A DNA stretch of 64,000 nucleotides from an uncultured Gammaproteobacteria bacterium (GCA_964355175.1 CAYHBZ010000001.1:240523-304522), one strand, 5' to 3'. Shown: positions 7,212 through 45,693, numbered from the stretch's first letter. The notes: generated from the sequence alone by a model not told the origin. Made by a program: numbers and translations.

Positions 7212-7922
7212 TTATTGATTTTCTAATAATTGATCGGTTGGAACATCCTTTAAATATTTGGCCGGAACACCCACCACTACATTTTTTGTCTCCACATCCT
7301 GAGTCACTACCGAACCCGCCCCAACCAGCGCGTCCTCGCCTACAGTAATTCCAGGCAACAACACAGCGCCCACACCAATCCTAGCACCTTTCTTAATATG
7401 AACACCTAAAAATTTAGAAAATCTTTCTTTGGTTCTACCCACATAAGCGTCATTAGACGTTAACACGCCAGGAGCAATAAAAACAAAATCTTCTATTTTT
7501 GAATAAGGCACGATATGAACATTGGACTGAATTTTACATTTATTTCCAATCTGGACTGAATTTTCTATTAATACCCGACTGCCGATTATTGTATTTTCCC
7601 CAATCACTACTTCTTCCCGAATAGTGGCATTATCGGCTAATAAACAGCCGTAACCGATCGTGGCACCCCGATAGACGGTTACACCAGAGCCGATAAGTAC
7701 ATCCGCACCAATTATCAATGGACCGAGTTCTCTATTTTCTGTAGTGGCCGAATTTTTGGAAACCAACGGCATTTTGCCAAGTATCGTATTATCATCAATA
7801 CGAACATTATTACCAATAACAACCTCGTCATAAATGACAACGTTATTTCCTATCACCACATTTTCCCCAATCATGGCACTCGGAGCTATTTTAAAATTAT
7901 TCATTTTTAAAAAAATTAACAA
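7212..7922 (-). CDS. Left-handed beta-helix (hexapeptide-repeat) sugar N-acetyltransferase (WbpD/PglD-like)
   Basis: Repeated [LIV]GxxxxI hexapeptides: IGENVVIGNNVVIYDEVVIGNNVRIDDNTILG. Confidence 0.75.
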   Translation of the reverse strand: MLIFLKMNNFKIAPSAMIGENVVIGNNVVIYDEVVIGNNVRIDDNTILGKMPLVSKNSATTENRELGPLIIGADVLIGSGVTVYRGATIGYGCLLADNATIREEVVIGENTIIGSRVLIENSVQIGNKCKIQSNVHIVPYSKIEDFVFIAPGVLTSNDAYVGRTKERFSKFLGVHIKKGARIGVGAVLLPGITVGEDALVGAGSVVTQDVETKNVVVGVPAKYLKDVPTDQLLENQ

Positions 7923-8853
7923 AATTATTTTCTATCTGGTTCACTACAACAGACTCTCTCATAGCATGAGCCAACTCAATAGCTGGCCGAACATCCTCTA
8001 GACCATAGCCTCCCCCTGTTAAAATCTGCTTATACACTTCAGTGTGCAGATCCGTAAAACCATCAGAAAATTCTACTTTCTCGCCATCAATAGTAATGGA
8101 ACGAAAAGATTTTATTTCTTTACCGTCGGCTTTAGGCAGATCATTTACATCCAAAGACAAAGCCCACTTTACCTTAGCGCGTTCGAGCTCTATGAAACCG
8201 GCCATCTTTTTGGGAGTTCGATAGTGGACTTCCTGCTTAATCACTTTGCCAAATATCCATATCAACATATCAAAAAAATGAATGCCGATATTTGATACTA
8301 CTCCACCTGATTTATTTATATCCCCTTTCCACGAACTCCAATACCAATTGCCCCGAGGAGTAATATAAACCAACTCCACCTCAAATTTCTTTTCGGATTG
8401 ATCATTCTCAATCTTTTCTTTTAAAGCGATAATGGCAGGATGAACCCTAAGCTGTAAAAGATTATAAACTTTTTTGCCACTTTCTTTTTCCATTTCAATT
8501 AAAGGATCAATATTCCAAGGGCTTAATACTAGAGGCTTTTCACAGATAATATCGGCGCCAATCCTAAGGCCAAAACGAATATGGGCGTCATGAAGATAAT
8601 TCGGCGAACAAATAGTGACATAATCTATTTTTTTGCCGGCTTTAGGATTCCTTTTATGCTTTTCCACGTATCGATCAAAGCGCTCAAATTCGGTAAAAAA
8701 ATCAACACCATAACTATAGCTATCAAGAATACCCACCGAATCATTTGGGTCATAAGCCGCCACCAAATTGTTTCCAGTTTCTTTTATGGCTTTTAGATGA
8801 CGTGGGGCAATATACCCTGCCACCCCGATTACCGCAAAATTTTTCGCAGTCAT
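7897..8853 (-). CDS. Gfo/Idh/MocA-family NAD-dependent sugar-nucleotide oxidoreductase (WbpB/GnnA-like)
   Basis: N-terminal Rossmann NFAVIGVAGYIAPRHLKAIKETGNNLVAAYDPN ... ICEKPL. Confidence 0.8.
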   Translation of the reverse strand: MTAKNFAVIGVAGYIAPRHLKAIKETGNNLVAAYDPNDSVGILDSYSYGVDFFTEFERFDRYVEKHKRNPKAGKKIDYVTICSPNYLHDAHIRFGLRIGADIICEKPLVLSPWNIDPLIEMEKESGKKVYNLLQLRVHPAIIALKEKIENDQSEKKFEVELVYITPRGNWYWSSWKGDINKSGGVVSNIGIHFFDMLIWIFGKVIKQEVHYRTPKKMAGFIELERAKVKWALSLDVNDLPKADGKEIKSFRSITIDGEKVEFSDGFTDLHTEVYKQILTGGGYGLEDVRPAIELAHAMRESVVVNQIENNFVNFFKNE

Positions 8854-27489: not shown

Positions 27490-28809
27490 TTATCTTTTAA
27501 CCGGATTGGTGGTAGTGACTGGTGTCACTATTACTTTTATTTCCGGAGTGGACGAAGTGGAAGTGGTAATAATTACTTTTATATCTTTTGAGTTGTCAGT
27601 AGCCGCTACCACTACCGGCGATACCGGTACGAGTTGAGCGGCACTCACTATAGTCTTGTCGTAAATTTTTTCCGCTTCTTTGGTCACCGTATTTACATCT
27701 TTCATCGCTTGCACGGCTTGAGTGAGATCACCTTTATTGAGAGAATCTACCGCTTTGGCCACAGCCTGATCAGTAGTTTGGACAGCGGTTTTGGTTTGAG
27801 CCACTGCGACATTAGTAGCGGTGGAAATTTCAGAAATTTTTTGAGTCAAAGCGGCCGTGGTGCTAGCGCTGTTTGTTTTGTCGGCAGACAGATCAGCGGC
27901 CTGAGTCTTGGCGGCGTTTATTACATCTTTTATTTTACCTACGCTCTGACTAGACTGAGCGGCATCGGTAGCACTGGATTGAAGAGTAGTATTAATTTCT
28001 TTTTTTACATCCGCTGCGGAAACGCTGTTGTCCCCTTCTAAGTGTTTGGTCACCATTACTTCCATGGCTTTCACGGAAGCATCTTTGGCCAAGTCTTTTA
28101 CTTCACTCACTGCTTGTACGGTCTGCACGGCGGCATCGGTGGCTGGAGTAGTAGAAGTATTTTGAGCGGCGATACTGAGCAAGCTGGTCTTTACTTCTTG
28201 CAAAGTGTTTTTTACCGCATCGGTGTCTTGTTTTACATCTTTTACCACATCGGCGGACAGAGTTTTATTTGGATCGTTTTTTATTTCATCCAATTTCTGA
28301 TTGACATTGGCGATTTCAATTTTTAAATCATTGACCATCTCCTGAGCCCTGGCTTGTTTGGATGGATCGTTGCCTACTAGGATCTGCTTGGTTTCGTCAG
28401 CGCGGCGTTTGGCAAACTCGGCGTGCAATTTGGTTTCGGCTTTACTGGCACCCACCATCGCGGCCATTGTGACCTGAGTTTTTTCAGCGGCGCGTTTGGC
28501 CGGATACAACCAGTCACCAGGCAATGTATTGTAAGCCGCGTCGACACCGGTAATCCAACCGCTGGTGGCCACCACACTTACTATTAATAGTACGGCCATC
28601 GGACGCACTATATTGAAGACTACCGGACGAGGCATAAAGAGAGCCATCGCGTTCCAGACATTTTCGAGATTAATTTTAGGAGTTTGGCTGCCGACAGTAT
28701 TTTTTATTTGGGATAGCAAAAGGGCGCGGTTGTTTTTCAACCACGCTTCAGACGGCTTTACTTCGCCGTGTTTGAGCTGTTTAAGTTGTGAGATTAATTT
28801 TTTTGGCAT
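27490..28809 (-). CDS. Putative membrane-anchored anti-sigma factor (single TM, Ala/Thr/Gln-rich coiled extracytoplasmic region)
   Basis: Gene immediately 3' of the ECF sigma gene. One TM (MAVLLIVSVVATSGWI) followed by LPGDWLYPAKRAAEK. Confidence 0.45.
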   Translation of the reverse strand: MPKKLISQLKQLKHGEVKPSEAWLKNNRALLLSQIKNTVGSQTPKINLENVWNAMALFMPRPVVFNIVRPMAVLLIVSVVATSGWITGVDAAYNTLPGDWLYPAKRAAEKTQVTMAAMVGASKAETKLHAEFAKRRADETKQILVGNDPSKQARAQEMVNDLKIEIANVNQKLDEIKNDPNKTLSADVVKDVKQDTDAVKNTLQEVKTSLLSIAAQNTSTTPATDAAVQTVQAVSEVKDLAKDASVKAMEVMVTKHLEGDNSVSAADVKKEINTTLQSSATDAAQSSQSVGKIKDVINAAKTQAADLSADKTNSASTTAALTQKISEISTATNVAVAQTKTAVQTTDQAVAKAVDSLNKGDLTQAVQAMKDVNTVTKEAEKIYDKTIVSAAQLVPVSPVVVAATDNSKDIKVIITTSTSSTPEIKVIVTPVTTTNPVKR

Positions 28810-28817
28810 ATCCCAAC

Positions 28818-29378
28818 TTATTTTTTATCTCCCAAAATTTGTTTTAATTTTTTCAAAGCGCGATGCATAGTGACTCGCACGGACAATTGGCTCTTGCCAG
28901 TGATCTCGGCGATCTCACTGATATCGAGCTCATCAACATATTTCAAAGTCAGCACTTCCTGATATTCTTGTTTTAATTTTTTTATCGCTTCGATTATTTT
29001 TCCGGTTTCCATTTTATTGGCCAACTCGTCGTACCATTTACCTTCGTCCCCTACCTCGATATTTTCATCCAGGGTGACTTCTGGTTTGGCAGCGCGAGCG
29101 CGATAAAAATCGATAATACTGTTGCGTGCGATTTTATAGAGCAAGCCACTGAAACTTTTTATCTCCGGCTGTTCTTCGCTATTAGTAATTAGAAACTGCC
29201 AGGCCTTCAAAAAAACTTCTGAAGTGATATCCTCGGCATTCTCATGACTACTAACTTTAAAAAAAACGAAGCGGTAGATTCGTTGTACATATATATCGTA
29301 AAGTTCCGTGTAAGCTTCTGGATCCTTTTTTGTGAATATCCTATATAGTAGGATTTTCTCGGTAAGGAAGTTGCTCAT
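28818..29378 (-). CDS. ECF-type RNA polymerase sigma-70 family factor
   Basis: Region 2 YRFVFFKVSSHENAEDITSEVFLKAWQ. Region 4 LTLKYVDELDISEIAEITGKSQLSVRVTMHRALKKLKQIL. Confidence 0.85.
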   Translation of the reverse strand: MSNFLTEKILLYRIFTKKDPEAYTELYDIYVQRIYRFVFFKVSSHENAEDITSEVFLKAWQFLITNSEEQPEIKSFSGLLYKIARNSIIDFYRARAAKPEVTLDENIEVGDEGKWYDELANKMETGKIIEAIKKLKQEYQEVLTLKYVDELDISEIAEITGKSQLSVRVTMHRALKKLKQILGDKK

Positions 29379-29509
29379 TATAGAAGACGAAAGAAAGTTA
29401 AAATTGTTACACTACTGCCTAACTACCTATTTAGACCTTTTCTGTCCTGCAAGCGATTTGCATATATTACCAAAAAAGGCATGAACGGTCAAATATGATA
29501 GTAGCGGTA

Positions 29510-29686
29510 TTGGCTAATAAAATGCTTTTTCAAACTGTGAAAATATTCGCACAATTTGCAACCCACTCGGCTCTGTCCCTGAACTCGTCGCTTGACGCTC
29601 CTCAGACAGCAGGGACAGACACGCCTCGTGGCTCACAAATTGTCTGCTCGTATTTTCAATGTTTTCAAAATCATTTTATTAGCCAA
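29510..29686 (+). repeat. Copy A of a ~176-nt conserved GC-rich inverted-repeat element (candidate structured RNA or cis-element)
   Basis: 15-bp terminal helix TTGGCTAATAAAATG/CATTTTATTAGCCAA. Internal core AATTTGCAAC...CCCTGAACTCG...CAGCAGGGACAG...CTCACAAATT is shared with 45486-45661. Confidence 0.5.
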
Positions 29687-29696
29687 TACCTTTACA

Positions 29697-29720
29697 TTTG
29701 TATACACTAGTCTATACAAA
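29697..29720. promoter_or_regulatory. 24-bp near-palindrome TTTGTATACACTAGTCTATACAAA (operator-like), copy 1
   Basis: Arms TTTGTATA/TATACAAA around an ACTAGT core. An identical copy lies at 29795-29818. Confidence 0.45.
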
Positions 29721-29769
29721 ACTAGCACGAAACTATACCAAATAAAACTCAAAAAGTCAATGATTACCC

Positions 29770-29818
29770 TTGACAGAACCTTAAAAATAAGGTAGTTTGT
29801 ATACACTAGTCTATACAA
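29770..29818 (+). promoter_or_regulatory. Putative sigma70 promoter (TTGACA-17-TAGTTT) overlapped by near-palindrome copy 2 (29795-29818)
   Basis: TTGACA at 29770-29775. The palindrome spans the -10 and TSS region of the downstream HTH gene. Confidence 0.35.
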
Positions 29819-29823
29819 ATTTT

Positions 29824-30249
29824 ATGGATAGCTCCAAAGGTCAACTAGCCAACAATGAACAAAAACCAAAAGAAATGATCCGCGTCTCTGTGTCAGAGGC
29901 GGCTAGACTTTTTGGTGTAAACTCTCAGACTATTCGTCGCGCTATCGCCGCTCAAGAGATAACCTATGTGATAGTAGCCGGACGCTATAAAGTAAACTTT
30001 GAGAGTTTGGTAAAGTGGTCACAACAACACACTACCGTAAAGAATAAATTAGCCAATCGTGGTATCGGTCAATTTGTTGAAAAGTGGAAAATAAAAAACC
30101 CTCTATACTCCCCCAACCCAAAATCGCTTTCCAAACCAACCGCACCAGCCGCCAAAAAAGTAGAAAAAATAGAACCGGAAAAAATCGAAAACAAACCCAC
30201 CGAAGACAACGAAACCAACCTGCCAAGCACTTACCTCAAACCCGATTAA
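29824..30249 (+). CDS. Small helix-turn-helix DNA-binding protein (Xis/MerR-like HTH). Start may be ATG 29824 or 29874; the ORF-track TTG start at 29797 is unlikely.
   Basis: IRVSVSEAARLFGVNSQTIRRAIAAQEITYV HTH. Lys/Pro-rich C-terminal tail. Confidence 0.55.
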   Translation: MDSSKGQLANNEQKPKEMIRVSVSEAARLFGVNSQTIRRAIAAQEITYVIVAGRYKVNFESLVKWSQQHTTVKNKLANRGIGQFVEKWKIKNPLYSPNPKSLSKPTAPAAKKVEKIEPEKIENKPTEDNETNLPSTYLKPD

Positions 30250-30266
30250 CAGTCGGGTTTTTTATT
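30238..30266 (+). terminator. Rho-independent terminator (AAACCCGA-TTAACAG-TCGGGTTT + T-run)
   Basis: Stem-loop contains the stop codon, followed by TTTTTTATTT. Confidence 0.55.
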
Positions 30267-45410: not shown

Positions 45411-45485
45411 AAGGCATTTGCCTGGTTATTGGCGTTATGGTATCATAAATATCACTAAAAGCAAGTTACAATATGATCTAGTATC

Positions 45486-45661
45486 ACTCGCGAATACATC
45501 CCTTTCACTCACCTAGAAAACACTCGGATAATTTGCAACTCCCTGAGCCTCTGGCCCTGAACTCGCCTGTGGGCTCAAACAGCAGGGCCAGCCACGACTC
45601 TGGGACTCACAAATTATTTCCTCGTGTTTTCACGGTTCGTTACAGGGATATATTCGCGAGT
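45486..45661 (+). repeat. Copy B of the ~176-nt conserved inverted-repeat element, immediately upstream of glyA
   Basis: 18-bp terminal helix ACTCGCGAATACATCCCT/AGGGATATATTCGCGAGT. Core AATTTGCAAC...CCCTGAACTCG...CAGCAGGGCCAG...CTCACAAATT. Confidence 0.5.
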
Positions 45662-45693
45662 TCTTTATTTTTATAAAATTTTTTATCTATCCT

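Follow-up and report, generated by a model that had tools for sequence, protein, structure and literature searches.

The CIRCE element of the HrcA system consists of two 9-bp arms with a 9-bp spacer and has chaperone genes as its targets. In the gal and lac systems, the operator pairs OE/OI and O1/O3 form two-operator repression loops which bracket promoters. The sites of RacA from B. subtilis are dispersed palindromes, and those of pSK1 Par are located upstream of par's own gene. Classical MerR regulators, which also use palindromic sites, have their operator inside a promoter spacer of 19-20 bp. BldC and Xis, with a length of about 55-70 aa (BldC ~68 aa), bind as monomers, head-to-tail, to direct repeats (PMC5859096).

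The locus described here, in which a 24-bp palindrome recurs next to the gene of a small winged-helix protein, can be compared with all of these systems and is, as judged from sequence and predicted structure, probably an autoregulated operator-repressor pair of the HTH_17, MerR-like winged-helix class with a regulon. It resembles CIRCE/HrcA in that a conserved inverted repeat with two 9-bp arms lies over a start site or leader and occurs, lineage-wide, at the regulator's own operon and a few other places. In comparison, HrcA is unrelated to the HTH_17 winged helix, the spacer measures 9 bp in CIRCE and 6 bp here, the CIRCE targets are chaperone genes whereas the contexts found here involve tRNA genes, a non-coding RNA, and DnaA boxes, and CIRCE, unlike the present palindromes, is not present in two to three copies about 70-120 bp apart. 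As in gal OE/OI and lac O1/O3, one operator sits on the core promoter, and a second, auxiliary one at a distance of about 90-115 bp encloses one or more promoters together with it; the regulators of gal and lac belong to the LacI and GalR families, however, and looping is suggested here by clustered spacings.

The window, i.e., the whole stretch of 64 kb that was analysed, contains the sequence TTTGTATACACTAGTCTATACAAA exactly twice, at 29697-29720 (O_A) and 29796-29819 (O_B), with a start-to-start distance of 99 bp and a gap of 75 bp. Each copy is self-complementary at 22 of its 24 positions, the mismatched pair being positions 9/16. A search of the window at up to three mismatches revealed no further copy, and a relaxed search for the arms only found nothing besides O_A and O_B. 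None of 100 dinucleotide shuffles contained a match to TTTGTATACACTAGTCTATACAAA, and none is expected by chance, which rules out a chance repeat as the origin of the 24-mer. The preliminary description of the locus had reported a near-palindromic 24-mer in two copies, and this proved exact except that it placed the second copy at 29795-29818, one base off. It had also correctly put the TTG start of the mechanical ORF (29797) within O_B; the conserved start codon of the HTH gene is the ATG at 29824. The features of the region, in window coordinates, are as follows.

27490..28809, minus strand: gene of a DUF5667 protein (Pfam DUF5667), an anti-sigma-like partner, downstream of the sigma gene in conserved synteny
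28818..29378, minus strand: ECF sigma factor gene (Pfam Sigma70_r2 and r4_2; NCBIfam ECF families), divergent from the HTH gene
29386..29411, minus strand: ECF-type promoter, TGTAAC-N16-CGTC, with its end 7 nt ahead of the sigma ATG
29464..29492, minus strand: sigma70-type promoter of the sigma operon, TTGACC-17-TGnTAATAT, conserved
29501..29695, no strand assigned: structured hairpin element of ~195 nt, copy A, with inverted repeats and a fold z-score of -11.5
29697..29720, no strand assigned: O_A, distal palindrome, proposed auxiliary operator 99 bp upstream, corresponding to O2 of three-site loci
29732..29760, minus strand: leftward sigma70-type promoter-like site, TTGACT-17-TGnTATAGT, 10/12 match plus TG, between O_A and O_B
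29770..29798, plus strand: HTH promoter, -35 TTGACA at 29770-29775, 17-nt spacer, -10 TAGTTT at 29793-29798
29796..29819, no strand assigned: O_B, proximal palindrome, proposed autorepression operator over the -10 and predicted start, corresponding to O3 of three-site loci
29824..30249, plus strand: HTH gene, encoding a 141-aa winged-helix protein of the HTH_17/excisionase family, the proposed palindrome binder
30238..30260, plus strand: terminator-like hairpin, overlapping the HTH stop codon

The -10 box of the HTH promoter extends into the first three bases of O_B, and the 3' end of O_B is followed after 4 nt by the ATG of the HTH gene. In the window, this -10 (TAGTTT) is weak and falls below the threshold of the promoter scan, and relatives carry TGnTATAxT at the same place; the promoter assignment thus leans on the relatives. 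Extended -10 boxes of the type TGnTATxAT seem to be the norm among the promoters of this lineage. The hairpin at the stop codon suggests a monocistronic HTH transcript, and a 580-aa DUF11-like protein is encoded past it, downstream of the HTH gene.

A scan of species-representative genomes yielded 80 loci, and almost all of them display the gene order DUF5667, sigma, intergenic region, HTH, DUF11-like, a chromosomal synteny which is conserved in about 130 loci. In the species-representative loci, the palindrome is confined to the sigma/HTH intergenic region, and no copy was found in the remaining ~600 kb of their flanks. Together with the metagenome loci among the matches listed, 124 HTH loci with at least 350 nt of upstream sequence could be compared. 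All 124 carry the palindrome, with one copy in 13, two in 38, and three in 73 loci, and TTTGTATAC-ACTAGT-GTATACAAA, a perfect palindrome, is their consensus. There is hardly any variation at arm positions 2-8 and 17-23, positions 9/16 and the centre being looser, and the arms stay this constant although the sigma proteins are only 50-75% identical and the rest of the intergenic DNA is unalignable.

Alignment of the loci on the gene-proximal copy reveals a promoter TTGACA-17-TGnTATAxT (spacer 16-18 bp across loci, mostly 17) whose -10 reaches into the palindrome at its first bases. In 98 of the 124 loci, 26-28 nt separate the start of a TTGACA-like -35 box from that of the palindrome, the offset in the window being 26. 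Transcription is predicted to begin 6-8 nt after the -10, at about positions 8-11 of the palindrome, and the 3' end of the palindrome lies 1-9 nt ahead of the ATG, which leaves no space for a Shine-Dalgarno sequence. Upstream copies are present in 111/124 orthologous loci, with O1 and O2 sitting between the two divergent gene sets. The O1-O2 spacing is bimodal (69-70 or 78-84 bp), and the O2-O3 spacing clusters near 77, 88, and 95-99 bp. Helical phasing of the operators was rejected, as the best periods differ by interval (11.75 vs 9.75 bp) and phylogeny is uncontrolled; the regularities may reflect phylogenetic inertia. A palindrome over the -10 and predicted start of the regulator's own gene is the arrangement of an autoregulated repressor, and the autoregulatory-operator geometry put forward in the preliminary description is supported by the conservation of this promoter overlap in about 100 loci, by the conserved upstream copies, and by the covariation of a recognition-helix residue with an operator base, as described below.

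Self-complementary sites of this kind might also work as nucleic-acid structure, either in RNA, as a stem-loop at the 5' end, a terminator, or a site of processing, or in DNA, as a cruciform. The predicted start of the HTH transcript inside O_B speaks against this, since the mRNA would contain the right arm only and the hairpin could not form, and many copies are located upstream of -35 boxes. The hairpins are weak (-4 to -8 kcal/mol), the flanks are T-rich on the 5' side and A-rich on the 3' side, which is the opposite of a terminator, and the arms are kept in sequence, with substitutions mostly disrupting the pairing. In a set of 464 sites with 161 distinct sequences, the pair 6/19 is broken 48 times, a wobble 11 times, and compensated 8 times, and at positions 9/16 broken pairs outnumber compensatory ones by 222 to 38. 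This excess of broken over compensatory changes points to two protein half-sites held to a consensus and not to a hairpin. A structural role would suit the copies between tRNA genes, where no promoter fits, and O_A, which would be transcribed whole from the leftward promoter; on balance, we regard it as highly unlikely. A structured RNA or terminator was rejected on the shortage of compensatory changes, the weak folds, the wrong flank polarity, and the Rfam searches, which gave no match at the gathering threshold in the window or at E<=1 in 29440-29830.

The 141-aa protein matches Pfam HTH_17 (PF12728) with 29.9 bits at a cut-off of 27, while its score for the excisionase-family domain TIGR01764 is just under the cut-off (27.9 vs 28.8). 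It has more than 1700 homologues, assigned, where named, to Candidatus Magasanikbacteria or Patescibacteria, and is taken to be a protein of Magasanikbacteria, which belong to the candidate phyla radiation (CPR). Identity over the first ~100 residues is 70-90%, and 52 invariant positions were counted in 26 sequences; the invariant part reaches residue 100 and thus includes a segment of ~40 residues past the winged helix, which is followed by a variable tail. AlphaFold2 and Foldseek agree on a beta-alpha-alpha-beta-beta winged-helix fold, with the elements E20-22, H23-30, H34-42, E48-51, E54-58, and H59-70, the wing corresponding to residues 48-58. The core (residues 21-70) was modelled with mean pLDDT values of 85-91 in blocks of 10 residues. 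Residues 79-141 have low pLDDT, and the model shows no confident dimerisation domain, coiled coil, or effector domain. In some of the HTH proteins, a variable low-complexity linker leads to a conserved C-terminal (S/T)Y(L/I)(K/N)PD (30226-30246 in the window), which could be a short docking motif.

The top Foldseek matches are Pukovnik Xis, BldC, RacA, and RdfS (target TM-scores 0.56-0.75), pSK1 Par was also found, and the fold resembles Xis, BldC, and RacA as solved on DNA; a search of the PDB sequences with the family profile returned no homologue. With BldC and Xis (PDB 6ama, 6amk, 4j2n), the protein shares the small MerR-like winged-helix fold, as seen by both Pfam HTH_17 and Foldseek, and BldC, too, acts pleiotropically and has several sites at each promoter. 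The present sites are inverted repeats, however, and with 141 aa, including the invariant ~40-residue segment and the variable tail, the protein is longer, so that a direct-repeat binder of the BldC type was rejected; the binding mode remains putative. RacA and pSK1 Par are MerR-like winged-helix proteins acting on centromere-like repeats and structural neighbours of the HTH protein. They differ from it by their coiled-coil C-terminal domains and, in the case of RacA, by a GC-rich site, and the palindromes described here show neither evidence of origin clustering, there being no GC-skew switch, nor a partition partner gene. The classical MerR regulators have a related DNA-binding fold and palindromic sites, but a classical MerR regulator was rejected here, since the promoter spacer is 16-18 bp (17 bp in the window), the palindrome lies in or after the -10, and no confident coiled coil or effector domain was predicted. 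Two points speak against the proposed binding of the palindrome by this protein: its structural relatives Xis and BldC are direct-repeat binders acting as monomers, and the distance of about 15 bp between the half-site centres is odd if a dimer were to contact a single face of the helix.

The base at half-site position 6 varies together with residue 35, which comes second in the predicted recognition helix, as follows.

Q35, 112 loci: A at half-site position 6 in 511/552 half-sites
L35, 8 loci: G at half-site position 6 in 14/34 half-sites
A35, 5 loci: G at half-site position 6 in 8/28 half-sites

The association is significant per locus (Fisher p = 1.6e-7) and rests on a handful of lineages, as the non-Q35 loci fall into about five lineages according to the nearest neighbours of the linked sigma protein, four of which have G at position 6. 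Direct readout predicts such a pattern, in which a Gln-adenine contact would be lost along with the adenine. It is mainly on this covariation, an indirect argument, that we take the HTH protein to be the reader of the palindrome.

Due to the excisionase-family annotation, recombination has to be considered as well. The palindromes would then be sites of recombination or of a mobile element, the protein would be a directionality factor, and the hairpin element together with O_A would form a mobile unit. Two 9-bp arms with a 6-bp core do resemble the core site of a tyrosine recombinase, the asymmetric positions 9/16 flip from locus to locus, and element and O_A are co-present or co-absent in close relatives, with the element inverted in L009. 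However, there is no integrase or recombinase within ~10 kb or in the conserved synteny of about 130 loci. Of the 10 flanking proteins in this ~10 kb, two are without a Pfam match and none is a recombinase or integrase; O-antigen-ligase-like proteins, MetK, a transporter, and a glycosyltransferase are among them. Moreover, relatives are collinear between the two sites and show no inversion there, the position of the palindrome relative to the promoter is fixed, and no palindrome was matched in viral contigs. We thus consider a recombination function extremely improbable. An invertible segment between O_A and O_B was rejected because the relatives are collinear, and an excisionase or recombination directionality factor on account of the missing neighbouring recombinase, the chromosomal synteny, and the absence of viral matches.

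Beyond the HTH promoter, the same 24-mer was found at other loci of related genomes, though no more copies exist in the window. A metagenome scan with the query TTTGTATASACTAGTSTATACAAA returned at least 120 matching loci; among the 120 matches listed, an HTH or sigma gene is present in 52 and absent from 68. This makes the palindrome look like the site of a wider regulator and not of one gene only. The preliminary description had named a dispersed repeat unrelated to the gene as the outcome that would speak against its reading. The repeat is indeed dispersed, but it is not unrelated, for every HTH locus has a site.

Among the matches listed, the 68 non-HTH loci fall mainly into two recurrent contexts. 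In context A (22 loci), the palindrome occurs with an RmuC-like gene, tRNA genes, and an O-antigen-ligase-like gene, and some copies are located within 45-65-nt spacers of co-oriented tRNA genes. TRNA-spacer palindromes without room for a promoter were noted at L081 1928, L124 395, L157 1127, and L120 5272. The repressor model leaves these copies unexplained. In context B (22 loci among the matches listed), DksA-like, lspA, and comM-like genes recur, and a strong promoter recurs in several loci. In one of these loci, L128, fusA is followed by a palindrome adjoining three DnaA-like boxes, a TTAGCCA/TGGCTAA repeat, a second palindrome, a promoter TTGACA-17-TGnTATACT, a non-coding stretch of ~330 nt that includes a terminator, and a DksA-like gene.

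The non-coding stretch is a candidate RNA of ~330 nt (L128, about 7916-8250), which was also seen in L158, L183, L175, L091, L122, and L146. Its promoter TTGACA-17-TGnTATACT begins 2-4 nt past the palindrome, and the candidate has a conserved transcript start AATTATGTAGTT and a terminator; Rfam gave no match for it even at E<=1. Another motif, TTAGCCAA/TTGGCTAA, was repeatedly seen at a distance of 8-15 nt from palindromes, often as the small inverted repeat GGCTAAAATTAGCC, namely at 29679-29686 in the window, between O1 and O2 of three-site loci (e.g., L024, L035, L047), and in L106, L108, and L109. In the window, this motif is the stem base of the hairpin element.

DnaA-like boxes, defined as TTATCCACA with at most one mismatch, occur within 60 nt of the non-HTH palindromes at 7.97 per kb vs 0.50 per kb in the remainder of the same loci, a 16-fold enrichment among the matches listed. 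At least one such box was found near 88/136 palindrome sites among these matches, and palindromes directly adjoin box triplets, for instance in L128 (7729-7876), L084 (1839-1997), and L141 (1343-1490) within the range L081-L200. The sigma/HTH intergenic regions do not regularly contain such boxes, and the 64-kb window has no cluster of them. The GC skew does not switch at the palindrome/DnaA-box clusters, its sign being mostly kept, and no dnaA signature was detected in the fetched loci, both in flanks of only 2-14 kb. An origin of replication (oriC) or an origin-linked centromere was rejected for lack of a GC-skew switch and of dnaA, a weak test with flanks of 2-14 kb.

The enrichment of DnaA-like boxes at non-HTH sites, the palindromes in tRNA spacers, and the absence of the HTH gene from 68/120 of the loci carrying the 24-mer (among the matches listed) would also agree with another lineage-wide factor binding the palindrome, such as a DnaA partner or a nucleoid protein, with the HTH gene as one target and the HTH protein reading something else. 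Against this, no gene of another DNA-binding protein was seen to recur in all contexts. The HTH gene alone is always accompanied by palindromes, usually two to three, and residue 35 of its recognition helix covaries with the operator base. We therefore judge another factor to be unlikely, while giving it some weight.

On the sigma side of the intergenic region, the ECF-type promoter keeps its place in almost every orthologous locus and is probably the autoregulated promoter of the sigma factor itself; it also implies a leaderless or near-leaderless sigma mRNA. The suggestion that the divergent region coordinates the sigma gene as well therefore remains putative, as sigma has two conserved promoters of its own, one sigma70-type and one ECF-type, which lie nearer.

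A strong leftward promoter-like site at 29732-29760 had been overlooked in the preliminary description. It points at O_A, the hairpin element, and the sigma gene, and its predicted transcript begins ~5 nt before O_A, so that O_A would occupy about +5 to +28. This promoter is restricted to the subclade of the window: it is kept in L003, L005, L007, L008, and L009, even in L005, which is without the hairpin element, and is missing from most three-site loci.

The hairpin element itself, whose copy A ends 1 nt ahead of O_A, had been regarded as a possible part of the regulatory system, and this view could not be maintained. It is restricted to close relatives (L001-L003, L007-L009, L192) besides the two copies of the window and is absent from most palindrome loci; L004-L006 lack both the element and O_A, and in L009 it is inverted. 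The second, diverged copy in the window (45478-45666) lies between a ThiE-like gene and glyA with no palindrome nearby. The outer stems of the two ~190-nt window copies show compensatory changes, and the minus strand folds 3-24 kcal/mol better in 9/9 copies. Rfam has no match for the element at E<=1. The element is thus a lineage-restricted neighbour and not a component of the palindrome system.

Taken together, we think it rather likely that the adjacent winged-helix protein, a putative repressor of its own gene with auxiliary operators and a small regulon, recognises the 24-bp palindrome. RNA polymerase with the housekeeping sigma factor would start at the TTGACA(29770)-17-TAGTTT promoter, within O_B. 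Once accumulated, the winged-helix protein would occupy O_B, from the last bases of the -10 to about the 15th transcribed base, and would thereby block transcription of the HTH gene in a negative autoregulation. O_A, joined by O1 in most relatives, would serve as an auxiliary operator which probably raises the occupancy of O_B by cooperative binding or looping. Since O_A would be contained in the initial ~30 nt of the leftward transcript, its occupation may block leftward transcription too. The sites at a few other loci in related genomes would make this a small regulon rather than a private switch. The effect of the protein elsewhere could differ, e.g., in context B, where the site is centred near -50, and a repressor role is not obvious at the tRNA-spacer or DnaA-box sites.

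The composite modules of a palindrome with three DnaA boxes, found at tRNA clusters and at the promoter of the ~330-nt RNA, allow for a wider interpretation. The winged-helix protein and the palindrome might form a lineage-wide system working with DnaA, in which these modules would make the transcription of stable RNAs, or else the titration of DnaA and the timing of replication, depend on how much of the protein is present, as a growth or cell-cycle module specific to the reduced-genome CPR bacteria. We regard this as a speculative and rather doubtful extension of autoregulation by the winged-helix protein. In the literature searched on Magasanikbacteria/Patescibacteria, DUF5667, and CPR regulons, we found no description of the protein, the site, or a coupling to DnaA boxes.

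To our knowledge, almost nothing is known about the control of transcription in CPR bacteria, which cannot be grown alone. The present locus provides a concrete, sequence-defined putative regulator-operator pair in this group, which is conserved over a class-level lineage and has a predicted contact, that of Q35 to adenine 6. The pair is open to in vitro study with recombinant protein and synthetic DNA, for which no culture is needed. Its predicted regulon reaches tRNA genes and clusters of DnaA boxes, and the association of the palindrome with both is unexplained and potentially the more novel aspect. A functional link to the DnaA boxes would hint at a layer of replication or growth control so far undescribed in CPR bacteria.
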